DNA of 64,000 nt from a virus. The translations under genes and the position numbers were made by a program. This document shows positions 3 to 18,738 of the stretch, piece after piece. The notes under the pieces were generated by a model. It was not told the origin of the DNA. It saw only the letters and a program-made list of their open reading frames with translations, and ran no database searches. The stretch covers positions 2,631 to 66,630 of the IMG/VR virus record IMGVR_UViG_3300028898_000325; one strand, given 5' to 3'. Position 1 is the first letter of the stretch. Each line of letters opens with the position of its first letter.

Positions 3-548
3 AAAGAGGCGATACAGGCCAGGATAAACGAAATAAACGAAAAGATCACCCCGGATGTATCCGATTGGATGCGGGAAGAATTGCTTTCCCGGAAATCAAA
101 GCTTTCAGGCGGCTTTGCCCTGCTTTACATTGGTGGGAAGACTGCCGGTGAGATAAAGGAATTAAAAGACCGCTGCGAAGATGCTGTTTTGGCTGTTCGC
201 TCTGCCATTGAGGCAGGATATTTGCCCGGATGTGGTAAAGCGTATCTTATGGCCTCAAAAAAATTGCCCGGAAAATCTATTTTGATCGAAGCGCTGCACT
301 CAATTACTCGGCAGGTTTGCTTTAACGGAGACATCAACGAAATACAAACCGGGGAAATCATTTTAAAAATGCTTTCATCTGGCGTTACTTTTGGCTACAA
401 CGCCCGAACCGATACAATGGAGGATTTATTTAAAGCCGGTGTTATTGATAGCGCAAAAGTTGTCATTTCAGCCCTTCAGAATGCCGTTTCCGCTGCCCTG
501 GCCTTTGTAAACACGGAATTTATCATTGCTCAGGAAAAGAAAGATTAA
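3..548 (+). CDS. groEL: Chaperonin GroEL-like protein, C-terminal part (5' truncated by window edge)
   Basis: The frame is open from nt 3: ARINEI..SDWMREELLSRKSKLSGGFALLYIGG...KDRCEDAVLAVRSAIEAGYLPGCG...GYNARTD..DLFKAGVIDSAKVVISALQNAVSAA. This follows the GroEL apical/equatorial motifs (KERxxDAxxAxxAAxxxGxxPGGG; GIIDPxKVxxxALxNAxS). Confidence 0.92.
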   Translation, partial: KEAIQARINEINEKITPDVSDWMREELLSRKSKLSGGFALLYIGGKTAGEIKELKDRCEDAVLAVRSAIEAGYLPGCGKAYLMASKKLPGKSILIEALHSITRQVCFNGDINEIQTGEIILKMLSSGVTFGYNARTDTMEDLFKAGVIDSAKVVISALQNAVSAALAFVNTEFIIAQEKKD

Positions 549-839: not shown

Positions 840-889
840 TTGAGTTGCGGCAATTGGGCGGAACTGCGGCAATACAAGAGTTAGCAGCA
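840..889 (+). other. Putative attI-like entry site of cassette array 1
   Basis: It ends in GA|GTTAGCAGCA (GTT at 880) and has no left hairpin arm. TTGAGTTGCGGCAATTGGG (840-858) is 17/19 identical to the reverse complement of 12531-12549. TGCGGCAAT occurs twice in direct orientation. Confidence 0.5.
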
Positions 890-1150
890 ATGCCTGACCA
901 ACACACAATCCTGCTTTGCTATATGCCGCCACATGGTTCGCTGCCCAGCATAGTCCTCCCACAATACATAGTCTTTAATGCCACCAGCATTATCAACGTC
1001 AAATTCTTCACCGATTAAGTTTCTATACCAACCCTGCTCGTATGAGCATTGGGTAATTCTGACCCGACAAGGAGCAGGCGGCAGGGCACTGCTGCTAACA
1101 TCGGTTTGCTGCAAGTCAGGCTGATTGTTTTCTAATGAACTGTTTTCCAT
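881..1150 (-). CDS. Hypothetical phage protein in cassette A (antisense to attC)
   Basis: 89-aa ORF. The stop TAA lies inside the core at 880-889 and the ATG lies inside the attC at 1090-1231. Confidence 0.65.
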   Translation of the reverse strand: MENSSLENNQPDLQQTDVSSSALPPAPCRVRITQCSYEQGWYRNLIGEEFDVDNAGGIKDYVLWEDYAGQRTMWRHIAKQDCVLVRHCC

Positions 1151-1231
1151 TTTGTAAACTTTAGTTTGTTATTAAATACTGTTGTGCTGCCAAGTCCTGC
1201 CCTGACAGCAAGCCGTCAACCGTTGTAGGCA
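1090..1231 (+). repeat. attC-like recombination site (array 1, #1)
   Basis: TGCTGCTAAC - GGTTTGCTGCAAGTCAGG ... CCTGACAGCAAGCC - GTTGTAGGCA. The arms are imperfect inverted repeats between AAC and GTT cores, with the longer spacer on the GTT side. Confidence 0.8.
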
Positions 1232-1278
1232 ATTTGGCAACCGTCTCCATAATCTAAACTTCACCTAAAAACTTTCGT

Positions 1279-2097
1279 ATGACACCAAAAACTCTTTTAA
1301 TTATGTTAATGGCACTTGTTTGCCAAAACGCATTTGCTCAAAATAAAAAATCAAATAAAGAAGCTCCTAACAAATTCGAGAACATTGATACCACTTCTTC
1401 ATCAAATCAAAAAGGAACTGAGGACATCAGTGAATATGGAGGAACACCAATAGTGACAAGAACAAGTAAATTTATTGAAATTTCTGAGGAAAAATCAGGT
1501 GAGGAAATTGCAAGTTTATATGATGAATGTGTGGTGATTATCAGTGGGTCATCCTCCACATTTTCCAGTCAAGGTAGCGGAGTAATAATATCTTCTGATG
1601 GTTATTTAATAACAAATTATCACGTGATAGCTGGAATGAACAATATAACCGCTTCCAATGCTATTATTAAAAATACTCCAGTCACAATTATATTTAAAGA
1701 CCAAACTAATGACATAGCACTTTGCAAACTTCCTAAATCAAATTATAAGACTGCTCAATTTTGGTTTGGTGATGCGCTTTTTAAGGGGTCGACAATATAT
1801 GCTATTGGAAGTCCATTAGGAACTCCAAATATGATTACAAAAGGAATTGTGTCCGGTAAGTATATCGAAGATGGTAAAGCATATATAGTTCATGACGCAG
1901 CCATGGGCAGCGGATCTAGCGGAGGAGCATTAATAAATGCAAAAGGTCTTCTTGTAGGCATCAATACAAAAGTGAAATTGCAACAAAAAGAAACTGTTGT
2001 TCAAAACTTCAATTATGCAATACCAATTCACGTAATTGAAAATATTCTTAAAGAAGCAGGTTATGAAAATGTTCTTAAAAATACTTCATCCAAATAA
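1279..2097 (+). CDS. Secreted trypsin-like serine protease (S1/HtrA-like catalytic domain, no PDZ), cassette B
   Basis: Signal peptide ending AFA|Q; GSGVIISSDGYLITNYHVI (His), NDIAL (Asp), GSSGGALIN (Ser). Confidence 0.9.
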   Translation: MTPKTLLIMLMALVCQNAFAQNKKSNKEAPNKFENIDTTSSSNQKGTEDISEYGGTPIVTRTSKFIEISEEKSGEEIASLYDECVVIISGSSSTFSSQGSGVIISSDGYLITNYHVIAGMNNITASNAIIKNTPVTIIFKDQTNDIALCKLPKSNYKTAQFWFGDALFKGSTIYAIGSPLGTPNMITKGIVSGKYIEDGKAYIVHDAAMGSGSSGGALINAKGLLVGINTKVKLQQKETVVQNFNYAIPIHVIENILKEAGYENVLKNTSSK

Positions 2098-2100
2098 AAC

Positions 2101-2303
2101 TGCCTACAACAAATGTATTACAGCAAGCGGGGCAGAAGTACAAATCATCAGCTGGAAACCGCTACTGTACTGCATTCACGCATGCAGTACAGCTATGGAA
2201 CATCGGTTGTAAACATCAAATTTTAAATCAATAATCGGCTGCAGTCCCACGCATGCGGAACATGAAAAATCCCGCCTGCTTTAATACTCGGTCGTTGGGC
2301 GCA
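2101..2303 (+). repeat. attC-like recombination site (array 1, #2; long)
   Basis: TGCCTACAAC - GTATTACAGCAAGCGGG ... CCCGCCTGCTTTAATAC - GTTGGGCGCA. It begins 3 nt after the protease stop codon. Confidence 0.8.
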
Positions 2304-2306
2304 ATA

Positions 2307-2747
2307 CTACGCTACCATTAATTCAGGATTTTCATATTTATTACCAATAACTTCTGTTTGATTCCACCATTCTATTGAGTATAATGAGCATTGGTCTTCT
2401 GACACTGTTGCATGGAAAGCGTAATCCTTCCAAACGACAACATTCCACCCTCCTTGCCAATTTTTTACAATATCTCCTTCCCATATTTCTTTACCATTTT
2501 TATCCTTCAACCCTGTATTTTGAAGGAAAATAGATTCATTCGGGAAAATGTCATATTTGTTTTCGTCTGGAACATACTGTGTTAACTCATTGTGTAACTC
2601 AAATGATTTCCCCATCTTTTTTAAAGACGGAATCCACGCCTTAAAATTTAATTTTCTTTTCATAATAAACGTACATGCGCCCAACATTTGCTTTGTGGCA
2701 ATAGTGGCAGAAGTGCCAGCTTCAACTTTTGATTTTCTATTTGACAT
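2307..2747 (-). CDS. YopX-like phage protein, cassette C (alternative start 2663)
   Basis: KLNFKAW...LQNTGLKDKNGKEIWEGDIVK...EVIGNKYENPEL is the YopX family signature. Confidence 0.88.
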   Translation of the reverse strand: MSNRKSKVEAGTSATIATKQMLGACTFIMKRKLNFKAWIPSLKKMGKSFELHNELTQYVPDENKYDIFPNESIFLQNTGLKDKNGKEIWEGDIVKNWQGGWNVVVWKDYAFHATVSEDQCSLYSIEWWNQTEVIGNKYENPELMVA

Positions 2748-2814
2748 AAGAATATATTTTGAACATTTGATTAATAAATTCCACTACTGCACAAAGCAGT
2801 TCAACGTTGGGCGT
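2676..2814 (+). repeat. attC-like recombination site (array 1, #3)
   Basis: TGCGCCCAAC - TGCTTTGTGGCAATAGTGG ... CCACTACTGCACAAAGCA - GTTGGGCGT. The left arm carries one extra base. Confidence 0.85.
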
Positions 2815-2856
2815 AAGCACTACCAGCATTTATTGCCAGTAGTGCTGCCCGACAAA

Positions 2857-3111
2857 TTAAGAACGTGGAGGCCAGTGCCAGGTTCTTGGCTCTTTAGTTT
2901 CGCTGTAAGGAACAGAAGTTGCCCATACATCTTTTTCACCATCAGCCAATACTTTTAAATTCACCTCATCGTTTTCGTATGAAGTGTTTTCCCACGTTCT
3001 TACAATAACAGCAGGTGACGTTTCGCCATTATTGTTTTCTTTTCTTGCATCTTCTGGCCACACGTAGATTACTACTCTACCAGAAGACGGCTTTACTTCG
3101 GACTTTGCCAT
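2857..3111 (-). CDS. Conserved-looking phage hypothetical protein, cassette D
   Basis: PSSGRVVIYV...PAVIVRTW...VNLKVLADG..W.TSV...WHWPPR resembles a small phage protein family recalled from memory; function unknown. Confidence 0.75.
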   Translation of the reverse strand: MAKSEVKPSSGRVVIYVWPEDARKENNNGETSPAVIVRTWENTSYENDEVNLKVLADGEKDVWATSVPYSETKEPRTWHWPPRS

Positions 3112-3172
3112 TTTATTTACGGTTTGACCAGAGCCGTTATGGTTTAATTTTCTATTAAATTACCCGTGCCTA

Positions 3173-3309
3173 ACGCCCAACAAACGGTTTGGCGGCAGTC
3201 GGGGGACAAGTGCAAATCCTCATCTTCGCTTATCTATCGGCTTCGGAAATATGGTCAGCAGCAGTTTTTCAAATACCGCCCGACCGCCAAGCCGAAACCG
3301 TTAGCGGCC
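3173..3309 (+). repeat. attC-like recombination site (array 1, #4)
   Basis: ACGCCCAAC (GCCCAAC fits RYYYAAC) - GGTTTGGCGGCAGTCGGG ... CCCGACCGCCAAGCC - GTTAGCGGCC. Confidence 0.85.
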
Positions 3310-3311
3310 AT

Positions 3312-3641
3312 TTAATATTTAAAGCGATCATACGCCTGTATATTTTTTTTCATTTTGGTTTCTACAAAAAACTTTGCCATGCTTTCCATCATTGCTTTCA
3401 GTTCTTCATTTATGTTCCCGTGGAAAATTACTTTGTTATCAAGCGGGTACCAGGTTGTTACTGCAATGTTGTATCCGGGCACTCTTTCTTCTGCCAGTGG
3501 CTTTATTTTTTCCATCTGCTGGTTAAGCAGCTGGGTATCTTTGTACATCCATACCCTGCATATCCATAAAGGAAAAACAGTGTGCAGGATGTAGGTCCCG
3601 TCTTCTATGTTTACGAAAACAAATTTTTCTACTTTAGGCAT
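3312..3641 (-). CDS. Hypothetical protein
   Basis: Likely start MPKVEKFVF (ORF is open to 3683); the stop is adjacent to the attC #4 core. Confidence 0.65.
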   Translation of the reverse strand: MPKVEKFVFVNIEDGTYILHTVFPLWICRVWMYKDTQLLNQQMEKIKPLAEERVPGYNIAVTTWYPLDNKVIFHGNINEELKAMMESMAKFFVETKMKKNIQAYDRFKY

Positions 3642-3867
3642 CTTGCTTTTTGATTTTAAACTGTATTTCCACACCGTAACCATTAACTATCTCTTCCAGT
3701 ATATCCAGGCTAATATTTCGGATTCCCCTTTCTATGTACGAAAGGTTTGAAGCAGCCTGACCGGTTTTTGCTGCAGCATCTTCTAAAGTTAAATTTTGCT
3801 TTTTCCGGAATGCTTTTAGTGCGGATCCAACTTGTGATTTTAAATCTTCTGTGGTTTTCTCTTTCAT
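3634..3867 (-). CDS. XRE-family helix-turn-helix regulator
   Basis: LKAFRKKQNLTLEDAAAKTGQAASNLSYIERGIRNISLDILEEI matches HTH_3. Confidence 0.88.
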   Translation of the reverse strand: MKEKTTEDLKSQVGSALKAFRKKQNLTLEDAAAKTGQAASNLSYIERGIRNISLDILEEIVNGYGVEIQFKIKKQDA

Positions 3868-7772: not shown

Positions 7773-7795
7773 TGTTTCATCGTTTGTTGACACAA

Positions 7796-7812
7796 AGTTA
7801 TGCTATATAACT
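7796..7812. promoter_or_regulatory. 17-bp palindromic operator-like motif overlapping a minus-strand TAACTTTG -7 box
   Basis: AGTTATGCTATATAACT; TAACTTTG on the minus strand at 7793-7800. Confidence 0.55.
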
Positions 7813-7964
7813 ATATAAACAAGCAAAAAGTATCAAATTTGATAAATTTAGTAGCTGTTCAATAAAATGCCTATATTTTATAACATTTGATAAAATTTAA
7901 ACGTAAAATTGAATAAAATTGAAAATATTTTAGTCTCGCAAATTCCCGGCAAAACACTTTTGAA

Positions 7965-7981
7965 GGTTATAAAGCATAACC
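7965..7981. promoter_or_regulatory. 17-bp palindromic operator-like motif
   Basis: GGTTATAAAGCATAACC; its reverse complement matches the 18673 copy at 15/17. Confidence 0.45.
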
Positions 7982-8126
7982 ATGCAAATAAACATGAGAG
8001 AGAACACCGGCGCCGGCACCAGCCGCAACACCACCAAACAGTGAAAAAAGTAAAAATGAAGCCTCCGAGAATTGAATAGAGAAAAACAAATTGCGCTATT
8101 GTACAGGATAAGCCAGGCTTACAGCC

Positions 8127-10296: not shown

Positions 10297-10406
10297 GCCT
10301 CAGAGTTTTTTCTTAACAAAAACCAAAGATAGGAAAAAATATTTGGTTATGTGGCATAACTTTATGTTATTTGTGGTTATATTGTATGACTTTAAAAAAC
10401 GAAAGA

Positions 10407-10696: not shown

Positions 10697-10827
10697 GGTA
10701 ACGGCTCCGGGTGTTTGCGAAGGGATGGAATAGTAGCACTTCCGCCCAACAACAACAAATGCCCGGCTTTGCAAATGGTTGAGAACTTATTCGTCAGCCA
10801 GCCTTTTGCAAATACCAATGTTCTATG
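10697..10827 (-). repeat. attC-like recombination site (array 2, distal)
   Basis: On the + strand: GGTAAC - GGTGTTTGCGAAGGGATGG ... CCAGCCTTTTGCAAATACC - GTTCTATG; the arms are 15/19 complementary. Spacer asymmetry indicates minus orientation. Confidence 0.75.
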
Positions 10828-10877
10828 TCTGTATTTTGCGAAGCTGCGGAGCTTTACTAACAATTTAAAAAGAGGTT

Positions 10878-11156
10878 ATGACAACAGAAAATGCTTTAGA
10901 CTTAGTAAAAATGTATGCTCAACCTGCTAAATCTTCTTTTGGCGGCGAACTGGATTATAATATAATTCCTTCAAAGCAATTCTATCATTTAGCAAATGAA
11001 ATTGCTGAAAAGGTAAACATGTGGCAAGATCAGGCCATTACGCTGCATAAGATTATTTATAAAATGATGAATGAAGAAATACCTACTTATGATATGAAGG
11101 AAGGGGAGGTAATTAAAAGTATTGTTGCTGAAATTGTAAATAACACAAAAAAATAA
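10878..11156 (+). CDS. Hypothetical protein (cassette E, gene 1)
   Basis: 92-aa ORF between paired cores at 10820 and 11571. Confidence 0.6.
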   Translation: MTTENALDLVKMYAQPAKSSFGGELDYNIIPSKQFYHLANEIAEKVNMWQDQAITLHKIIYKMMNEEIPTYDMKEGEVIKSIVAEIVNNTKK

Positions 11157-11161
11157 ATTTT

Positions 11162-11575
11162 ATGGTAGATAAGAAAAAACTTGCCGAAATATTTAACCTT
11201 CCAGTGAGTGAAGTTGAAACAATTTTTGAAGCTGCATTGGTTTATCAATGTGATGCACAAAATGAAGGGTATAGAGATTGGTGTAAAATGTATGATGGCA
11301 TTCATAGGGAAATGCACGGGGAAACAGCAATAAGAAACTGGCTTGCATTTAGAAGATGGCAAAAATCAAGGGCACAGCCTTCTATTAAAGAGTTTATGAA
11401 TCTCGCAAATGAGTTGAGTAATACATCTACGGATAAACAATTTAGATATGTTCTTACTCATTCACAACTTATAAAGCTGTATGAATTTGCGCAAGCTGGT
11501 GCTATTAATGCTGAAATTCAAACGTCCAGCCCATTAAAGAACGAAAAGTGTGGCAAGGGGCAAAATATAGCATAG
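11162..11575 (+). CDS. Hypothetical protein (cassette E, gene 2)
   Basis: 137 aa; the stop TAG lies inside the core CATAGAAC. Confidence 0.65.
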   Translation: MVDKKKLAEIFNLPVSEVETIFEAALVYQCDAQNEGYRDWCKMYDGIHREMHGETAIRNWLAFRRWQKSRAQPSIKEFMNLANELSNTSTDKQFRYVLTHSQLIKLYEFAQAGAINAEIQTSSPLKNEKCGKGQNIA

Positions 11576-11683
11576 AACGTGCCGGGTGCTTACGAAGGCG
11601 GGATATTGACTTGAGGCAGTTTGGCTTTGCGATTGTTCCGGCTTTGTTCCTTCGCCCCGCTTTTGTAAGCACCATGTTATGTA
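11571..11683 (-). repeat. attC-like recombination site (array 2, middle)
   Basis: CATAGAAC - GGTGCTTACGAAGGCGGG ... CCCGCTTTTGTAAGCACC - GTTATGTA; the arms are 16/18 complementary. Confidence 0.85.
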
Positions 11684-11785
11684 TCAGTAGGGCAATGACT
11701 GTTCCTGCTGCTGAATAGAATTACTGAAGAAAAAATGCGGGGACGGCTGAAGTCACAGCCACTCCGAAACACTAAAAACAAAAGC

Positions 11786-12169
11786 ATGAAAATTTATACT
11801 GCAAGCAAAACGAAACACGCTCACAAATGGATTGAGCTAAGAAATAACGGCGTGAATGTTATTTCAACTTGGATTGATGAAGCAGGGCAAGGGCAAACAA
11901 AAGACATGGCTGATTTGTGCCGCCGTTGCATTCAGGAAAGTATTGACTGTGATGCAATGATTGTGTATGCAGAAGAAGGCGACTATTTGAAGGGTGCATT
12001 TATTGAAATGGGCATTGCTCTTAGCGTTCCCTCTAAGCCGATTGTGTTGGTTGGCGAAGTGCTGCCTTTCGGTTCAGCATTCACGTATGCGCCACAAGTT
12101 TTCAGGGCTAAAACAATAGAGGCGGCTTTGGAACTGTTAGAAACTTCCAAAACGCCGGTCACGGCGTAG
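11786..12169 (+). CDS. Nucleoside 2-deoxyribosyltransferase-like (NDT-fold) protein, cassette F
   Basis: MKIYTAS...ISTWID...CIQESIDCDAMIVY...KGAFIEMGIAL..KPIVLVG follows the NDT pattern (xIYLAG ... D ... GxxxExGxA). Confidence 0.7.
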   Translation: MKIYTASKTKHAHKWIELRNNGVNVISTWIDEAGQGQTKDMADLCRRCIQESIDCDAMIVYAEEGDYLKGAFIEMGIALSVPSKPIVLVGEVLPFGSAFTYAPQVFRAKTIEAALELLETSKTPVTA

Positions 12170-12226
12170 GGAAGCGTGGGGCATTTTTTCTAAACTGAAG
12201 TTCGGTTATGTTCAAAAGCCCTATTG

Positions 12227-12365
12227 TACATAACGTCGAGAGGCTTTGTGCCTGTTGCCGAATTTGAAATTATTCACTCTAAAATTTATACAAATGTCCA
12301 AAAGTAAAAAGAAAGTTGAGCCGACTTCCCAAAGCGGCAATAGCACAAAACCTGTGTTATATGCC
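12227..12365 (-). repeat. attC-like recombination site (array 2, proximal)
   Basis: TACATAAC - GGCTTTGTGCCTGTTGCCG ... CGGCAATAGCACAAAACC - GTTATATGCC; one extra base in one arm. Confidence 0.85.
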
Positions 12366-12527
12366 GTTGGCGATTTGGTGAAAATCATTGCTAATGTTGA
12401 TTATGTAGGTTCAGTTGGTCGGGTGATTGATTTAAACGAACCTGGCCCTCATCCGATAAAGGTTCAATTTGAGGACACTTGGTGTTGTTATGCAGCCGAT
12501 GAGATATGTCACGCCAATGGCATATAA
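12294..12527 (+). CDS. Hypothetical protein, possible SH3/KOW-like fold (cassette G)
   Basis: AVGDLVKII...GSVGRVID...PIKVQFED. The ATG lies inside the attC and the stop TAA lies inside the core GGCATATAAC. Confidence 0.6.
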   Translation: MSKSKKKVEPTSQSGNSTKPVLYAVGDLVKIIANVDYVGSVGRVIDLNEPGPHPIKVQFEDTWCCYAADEICHANGI

Positions 12528-12549
12528 CTCCCCAATTGTCACAACTCAA
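12519..12549 (-). other. Putative attI-like entry site of cassette array 2
   Basis: Minus strand TTGAGTTGTGACAATTGGGGA|GTTATATGCC; no hairpin arm; matches 840-858 at 17/19. Confidence 0.5.
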
Positions 12550-18665: not shown

Positions 18666-18672
18666 GTTGCAA

Positions 18673-18689
18673 AGTTATGCTTTATAACT
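18673..18689. promoter_or_regulatory. 17-bp palindromic operator-like motif overlapping the minus-strand TAACTTTG box of the GroES-like gene
   Basis: AGTTATGCTTTATAACT; -7 box at 18670-18677. Confidence 0.55.
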
Positions 18690-18738
18690 ACCTAAAAAAT
18701 TTTATCGGTTATTTTGTCATGACAATATAAATATTACT

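Follow-up and report, generated by a model that had tools for sequence, protein, structure and literature searches.

A candidate integron-type cassette carrying a protease gene in a provirus with mainly Bacteroidota-like proteins

The left end of the provirus and the protease gene

The window analysed here, the whole stretch of 64,000 nucleotides, corresponds to bases 2631-66630 of a 71,442-bp IMG/VR provirus record, which is 71% complete according to CheckV and whose best protein matches lie mostly in Bacteroidota. Near its left end lies an array of four cassettes bounded by attC-type hairpins, the second of which carries a gene for a serine endopeptidase, and a further array, with its sites inverted, is found to the right. 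The features on which the analysis rests are the following, with the scores of the sites given for the covariance models R1, R2 and R3 described below.

880-3306, sites on the top strand (+): left array, four cassettes, the protease cassette being no. 2
880-889, +: first GTT core, GTTAGCAGCA, an entry junction with no hairpin partner upstream
1093-1228, +: attC a0, site of the preceding cassette (112 bits with R1, 102 with R2, 88 with R3)
1223-2294, +: protease cassette, starting with the TT of G|TTGTAGGCA and ending with the G of the following G|TT
1223-1278, +: 5' leader of the cassette, 56 nt, without an exact TAnnTTTG box
1279-2097, +: protease ORF, 272 aa, PDZ-less HtrA/DegS-type serine endopeptidase, predicted to be exported
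1279-1338, +: predicted signal peptide, residues 1-20, cleavage AFA|Q
1486-2058, +: protease domain, about residues 70-260, pLDDT about 90 in the AlphaFold model
1621-1623, 1711-1713 and 1918-1920, +: catalytic codons for His, Asp and Ser, as read from the sequence
2101-2303, +: attC-like site a1, with R'' TGCCTACAAC at 2101-2110 and R' GTTGGGCGCA at 2294-2303
2115-2132 and 2271-2287: 5' and 3' arms of a1, separated by a long loop; spacer TCGGTC
2679-2812, +: attC a2, own site of the YopX cassette (127 bits with R1, 126 with R2, 101 with R3)
3175-3306, +: attC a3, last site of the left array (106 bits with R1, 99 with R2, 81 with R3)
10744-12528, sites inverted (top strand -): right array, with at least three sites in 10744-12362

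An independent contig of 7.7 kb (L001), 99.97% identical to the provirus record, reaches 117 bp further left, and this additional sequence resembles the 3' end of a tRNA gene, with no complete tRNA detected by ARAGORN in that flank. At the left end, the tRNA-like host flank precedes a tyrosine recombinase of 386 aa, after which come GroES and GroEL, an HTH gene and then the array. The 386-aa recombinase, GroES (81 aa) and GroEL (525 aa) are encoded on the + strand, as is the protease (L001:1-1278; window 3-548), the two chaperonin genes lying 0.7-2.5 kb upstream of it. The recombinase gene is the only one in the record with PF00589, and is located beside the tRNA-like flank, 2.3 kb upstream of the first core at 880. 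Taking into account that its scores against TIGR02249 (34 + 20 bits) are far under the cut-off for integron integrases (265 bits), we read it as a probable prophage integrase at attL and not as an integron integrase (IntI); no IntI was detected by TIGR02249 and PF00589 searches of the 71-kb record. An integrase search of viral contigs led only to relatives at 25-29%, and no close phage relatives were obtained in which the arrays could be compared.

The Bacteroidota -7 box TAnnTTTG is depleted in the window (39 copies in 1-64000, versus 77 ± 9 expected), and between 393 and 3536 no exact copy was found on the + strand. One copy on the - strand (2110-2117) falls inside the 5' arm of a1, pointing antisense into the protease gene. 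A palindromic repeat (AAAGTTATGC…ATAAC) recurs at the boundaries of the early region (7793-7822, 7940-7987, 10340-10367 and 18667-18714), and may be an operator or promoter element.

A preliminary description of this DNA had presented the protease gene as AT-richer than its neighbours and opposite to the surrounding transcription, and both observations are borne out: its GC content is 33.3%, the fifth lowest among 89 ORFs with a mean of 40.9%, its GC3 (21.6%, z = -2.7) is the lowest of all 89, and the genes around it (545-796, 881-1150, 2307-2747, 2857-3111 and 3312-3683) are all on the - strand. The stop codon TAA (2095-2097) had been placed 3 nt before the AAC core, which holds for the 10-nt core and not for the AAC triplet itself, situated 10 nt downstream. 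As also described, MTPKTLLIMLMALVCQNAFA|Q at the N-terminus looks like a signal peptide cleaved at AFA|Q, and in the AlphaFold2 model residues 3-19 form a helix, after which comes a disordered linker (19-68). The proposed catalytic triad proves intact, H115, D145 and S214 being invariant across seven family members and aligned with the catalytic residues of HtrA.

Likewise, the lack of a PDZ domain is confirmed with Pfam and NCBIfam, the protein ending 12 residues past the protease domain; a T9SS sorting domain was not found either. Pfam assigns the domain to Trypsin_2 (2.7e-26), and among the NCBIfam models for DegP, DegS and HtrA only the protease half is matched, far under the cut-offs. With 130 bits against TIGR02037, whose cut-off is 416 bits, the protease falls outside the orthologues of every named HtrA. 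By sequence, its best solved relative is the HtrA of Thermotoga (PDB 1l1j, 4.9e-23), whereas the best Foldseek matches of the model are DegS-deltaPDZ structures (1e-15). PADLOC returned only a match of the protease domain to RT-protease fusions, which is not counted as a system call.

Cassette boundaries and the attC site family

The protease cassette is delimited by two complementary pairs. Its 5' end, GTTGTAGGCA (1222-1231), the G of whose G|TT junction is given by the R' of a0 (GTTGTAG), is the exact reverse complement (10/10) of its own R'', TGCCTACAAC (2101-2110), and at the other end GTTGGGCGCA (2294-2303) is the exact reverse complement of TGCGCCCAAC (2676-2685) in the next site. The same relation is found along the whole left array: the first core, GTTAGCAGCA (880-889), is the exact reverse complement of the head of the a0 R'', TGCTGCTAAC (1090-1099), and the R'' of a3, ACGCCCAAC, is a reverse complement of the R' of a2, GTTGGGCGT. 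This gives a chain with 10/10 complementary positions for 880/1090, 1222/2101 and 2294/2676, and 9/9 (9 of 10) for 2806/3173. Complementarity between the 5' end of a cassette and its own R'' also occurs in three metagenome contigs (L003, L009 and L010). Such a chain would be the signature expected of circular cassettes inserted by crossover between G and TT.

The site of the protease cassette, a1, is atypical. Its arms form 16 pairs with 2 mismatches, the spacers have 4 and 6 nt, and the DNA folds at -29.6 and -31.5 kcal/mol on the two strands (z -2.6 and -3.3 versus shuffled sequences). Motifs of its loop are also found in a2 and a3. In the seven phage sites AAC-A and C-GTT are invariant (7/7), although the degenerate positions of RYYYAAC are partly unmet (CTACAAC). 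Nonetheless, a1 has 197 nt, versus 131-135 nt for the attC family, and was not recovered whole by R1-R3, its best whole-site score being 5 bits; only the core of its loop (2187-2244) is a weak model match. One bacterial site of 197 nt exists (L115:1786-1982).

The loop of a1 contains a perfect 11-bp hairpin at 2165-2192 (CTGTACTGCAT / ATGCAGTACAG) and a 9-nt direct repeat, CACGCATGC, present at 2177-2185 and 2249-2257; both look like insertions which stretch the loop to its 197 nt. A candidate inner R' (GTTGTAA at 2206) was set aside for lack of any supporting arm pairing. As in integron cassettes, the unit carries a single sense ORF that precedes the site of the cassette and lacks an exact promoter box, together with R'' and R' cores, complementary ends and imperfect inverted repeats with unpaired spacers.

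In a plain MAFFT alignment of the seven phage sites RNAalifold gave no consensus structure, and this made it necessary to use a structure-aware seed, built from four phage sites and iterated to yield the models R1-R3, R3 being the general one. These define a family of sites of about 132 nt, of which the array neighbours a0, a2 and a3 are members (81-127 bits). In the right array, the site at 12228-12362 scores 81-127 bits on the - strand, and two others score 23-25 bits (R3, -). The truncated sites of L003, L009 and L010 were not recovered by any of the three models. All nine predicted helix pairs (9/9) have compensatory changes across 35 phage and bacterial sites, in an alignment that is fitted to the model and therefore favours the structure.

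At E ≤ 1e-4, family matches appear in 72 of the 151 genomes of the order to which a Lewinellaceae MAG belongs, where a single genome may have as many as 21. A second Bacteroidota order has them in 8 genomes out of 101, and the five non-Bacteroidota genomes searched have none. In the Lewinellaceae MAG two sites (75 and 50 bits) are in a chromosomal setting, with a LysR regulator, an aminotransferase and a T9SS-sorted protein, and immediately upstream of the array is a tyrosine recombinase, broken and in the same orientation. This locus (L100:11948-13988; G005:C15) has two cassettes, whose ORFs, a short-chain dehydrogenase and one of 169 aa, are sense; the recombinase is interrupted by a TAG, which splits it into two ORFs, and the entry core, GTTAGCGGTC, almost matches the last core of the phage left array, GTTAGCGGCC (3300-3309). 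Two other bacterial arrays (L115 and L117) have no recombinase in their flanks. An eight-site bacterial array adjoins genes for DarT-domain and DUF6939 proteins (L115:14413-16195; G118:C28), which fits the idea of defence genes travelling as cassette cargo.

With four sites in 1093-3306, at least three in 10744-12362 and no IntI in the 71-kb record, the phage arrays correspond to a CALIN. They do not constitute a complete integron, for which an IntI (PF00589 plus the IntI-specific domain) beside attI would be needed.

Gene orientation and homologues of the cassette

The rule for orientation was calibrated on the ORFs located between sites in three bacterial arrays, 27 of 29 of which are sense to the site strand. 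In the phage only one cassette ORF in eight is sense, and this is the protease gene (Fisher p = 2.6e-5 versus bacteria). The other seven are antisense and co-directional with the phage operons: in the left array, the 89-aa ORF of the a0 cassette (881-1150), the YopX gene, whose cassette spans 2295-2806, and an 84-aa ORF; in the right array, whose sites are on the - strand, four ORFs on the + strand. The contrast between 27/29 and 1/8 is a simple marker.

Two of the antisense ORFs, 881-1150 and 2307-2747 (both -), start at an ATG in the loop of their own attC (1150 in a0 and 2747 in a2), continue through the arm and the R'' core, and end at the 5' boundary of the cassette or no more than about 12 nt from it. 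The likeness of the YopX protein to its family begins only at about residue 20, just inside the cassette boundary.

Homology breakpoints coincide with the cassette ends. Contig L095 matches the YopX cassette at 83% DNA identity as far as 2293/2294, exactly where the two sequences diverge, and at the opposite end of the cassette the likeness continues into a2; among the contigs with YopX homologues only L095 is informative on orientation, those on the long contigs L091 and L094 being surrounded by ordinary rows of phage genes with no sites. For the protease cassette, the likeness to L009 starts at about the G|TT core, includes the beginning of the leader, GTTGTAGGCAATTT, and continues past R'' into the 5' arm, while upstream of the core L009 has only 16 nt, which are unlike a0. 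Taking together these breakpoints and the calibrated rule, the earlier statements that the protease gene has the canonical cassette orientation, and that it is the only sense cassette, stand.

Among 1.84 billion representative proteins, eight were found below 1e-30. Excluding the window protease itself (P0001), the four closest relatives have identities of 38-44%, and three of them, all encoded on short metagenome contigs, are in cassettes with the same end structure: P0124 (41%) is flanked by GTTGTAGGC/GCCTACAAC, P0123 (43%) by GTTGTACGC/GCGTACAAC, and P0003 (38%) by GTTGGTGGC/GCCACCAAC. In L009 the cassette ends are identical to those of the window cassette. No flanking sites could be recognised around the best homologue, P0122 (44%). 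The gene of the closest homologue (44%, L008:1698-2504) has a GC content of 31.5%, versus 45.8% in the rest of its contig, and short direct repeats follow its stop codon. The closest homologues did not turn out to be phage genes devoid of attC flanks, P0122 being the exception as to flanks.

In the bacterial arrays the cassette bodies have 30-38% GC and the sites 44-47%, and the corresponding values of the protease cassette are 33.3% and 45.2%, so that its composition matches that of a shared cassette pool rather than that of an exotic donor. A search of 401 genomes of the candidate host order yielded only housekeeping HtrAs and no close homologue, and among the matches listed in a search of representative genomes with a generic peptide motif there were only housekeeping HtrAs of 30-41% identity. 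No phage record has a relative above about 36% identity. However, the homologue in L010 is followed by a gene of the phage family phrog_3964, and P0001 itself matches phrog_11383 (1.8e-35), so that a phage-borne pool is equally possible as a source. An ORF downstream of the protease gene in L010 was considered as a relative of the 686-aa early protein of the window, and is unrelated. The three independent assemblies of the locus show no presence/absence polymorphism, and the context of the cassette is identical in L001 and L002.

These data qualify what the preliminary description had proposed on provenance. The gene is bacterial-looking in its orientation and in the GC of its body and site, less so in that one homologous cassette adjoins a phage-family gene. 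Capture from a host integron pool finds support in the composition and in the abundance of the neighbours' attC family in Bacteroidota, but no donor appeared among the 401 genomes or among the matches listed from representative genomes. In the same way, the homologues that it suggested looking for in integrons or CALINs exist as same-ended cassettes on three metagenome contigs, and were not found in those genomes of the host order. That the capture was recent finds no support, the nearest cassette homologue being only 41-43% identical and no presence/absence polymorphism being seen.

Interpretation and comparison with known systems

Taken as a whole, we consider it probable that 1223-2294 is a single-gene, integron-type mobile cassette, situated in a CALIN near the integrase end of the provirus and coming from a Bacteroidota cassette pool. 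The cassette would have entered in circular form through the action of a tyrosine recombinase on the folded site, and its 5' end would mirror its own R'' because the crossover would lie between G and TT. The record encodes no recombinase that could move the cassette, and such an enzyme could have been supplied in trans, by an integron-like platform of the host or by another element. Entry from the cassette pool of Bacteroidota chromosomes is suggested because the gene is sense, its body AT-rich and its site GC-richer, as opposed to the seven antisense phage cassettes. Since no PDZ domain is present, the product would be a Sec-exported, predicted periplasmic serine endopeptidase without PDZ gating. 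Expression of the gene is uncertain, because no exact promoter box of the host type precedes it and its direction is against local phage transcription; on these grounds it would most likely be a moron-like accessory gene with weak or conditional expression, for instance in the lysogen. The protease fold is ordinary, and the interest of the protein would lie in its being the predicted exported cargo of a prophage cassette.

It is unlikely that the protease is instead a long-resident phage gene, within an immobile unit that did not come from a bacterial pool and whose flanking sites belong to the neighbours or are relics. The atypical structure of a1, missed by the family models, the PHROG match of P0001 (1.8e-35), the phage-family gene adjoining one homologous cassette and the lack of polymorphism among three independent assemblies would agree with such an origin, but it leaves unexplained why both ends are exactly complementary, one to the unit's own R'' and the other to that of the next cassette, and why the same ends surround a 41%-identical protein in L009, where the short upstream stretch is unlike a0; a GC3 that is the lowest of 89 ORFs and the absence from phage records of any relative above about 36% identity also speak against it. 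Far less credible is a reading of the AAC…GTT hairpins as terminators or regulatory stem-loops between convergent and divergent genes, with an incidental complementarity of the ends. It is true that a1 lies between the convergent protease and YopX genes and has a perfect 11-bp hairpin, and that attC sites can be weak terminators (discussed in PMC9892861); nevertheless, no T-run follows the hairpins, and a role of this kind would account neither for the 9-10-nt complementarity chain over successive sites, nor for the helix covariation in 35 phage and bacterial sites, the arrays of up to 21 sites per genome with interchangeable gene content, or the homology breakpoints at G|TT, exact in the case of the YopX cassette.

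As regards function, it has been considered that the protease could be a tool of the phage for proteostasis or lysogenic conversion, acting in periplasmic quality control together with GroES/GroEL, or cleaving a receptor against superinfection. HtrA (S1C) proteases act on envelope proteins, and the triad of this one is intact and its export predicted from sequence; GroES and GroEL are encoded 0.7-2.5 kb upstream on the same strand, a nearness that may be due to chance because the gene is in a separately mobile unit. Taking into account that no promoter box was found, and that PADLOC has no system match beyond that of the protease domain, this role seems doubtful, and the part of it that concerns receptors or superinfection is pure conjecture. 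A wider proposal, to be taken as tentative, is that Bacteroidota and their temperate phages draw on one integron-like pool in which orientation marks provenance (sense for bacterial, antisense for phage-adapted cassettes), the protease being a bacterium-to-phage transfer caught in the act whose product would serve in lysogenic conversion by remodelling the envelope, for instance through removal of a receptor. Returning to the favoured reading of a mobile cassette, its build and its being the only sense one point to exchange between bacterial and phage cassette pools.

The protein has in common with HtrA, DegP and DegS (MEROPS S1C; nearest structures the DegS-deltaPDZ 3lh3 and 2rce) the chymotrypsin fold, the His-Asp-Ser triad, the GxSGG(A/P)L motif and an N-terminal export signal. 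It differs from them in a disordered linker of 50 residues after the signal peptide and in having no PDZ domain, HtrA, DegP, DegQ and DegS carrying one or two at the C-terminus.

The arrays resemble sedentary chromosomal integrons, such as the Vibrio cholerae superintegron with its VCR sites, in the RYYYAAC…GTTRRRY cores, the G|TT crossover signature, the homogeneous sites of about 130 nt per lineage, the promoterless single sense gene and the AT-rich bodies. Unlike in those integrons, no IntI with the extra domain is present in the phage record, and the recombinase adjacent to the array of the Lewinellaceae MAG, a broken PF00589 gene, runs in the direction of the array instead of diverging from it. 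In Bacteroidetes, IntegronFinder 2.0 had found only In0 elements and one complete integron, that of Salinibacter ruber (PMC9024848), and the site family of the neighbours of a1 is very common in the chromosomes of this group, where published surveys had thus found almost no integrons.

Arrays of cassettes without a recombinase are already known in phages, and the present locus adds another example. A total of 17 CALINs, along with integron components, have been published in phages. Their sites recombine with IntI1, and among the cases, a phage of Polaribacter (Bacteroidota) included, are sites of divergent orientation and stretches of several ORFs from one site to the next (PMC9892861, Qi et al. 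2023). As in these, an array of attC-type hairpins bounds small genes here, with no IntI nearby. Here, however, the sites belong to a uniform Bacteroidota family of about 132 nt, present in about half of the sampled genomes of one order, and most of the cassettes are antisense. Moreover, for the published sites the calls came from IntegronFinder/HattCI and the tests used IntI1, whereas those described here are defined from sequence and, a1 excepted, by covariance models of their own. Phage cassette arrays have only recently been recognised as a route of gene flow (PMC9892861), and this locus is a concrete example, in which a cassette of bacterial-style build and composition lies among antisense cassettes of the phage style.
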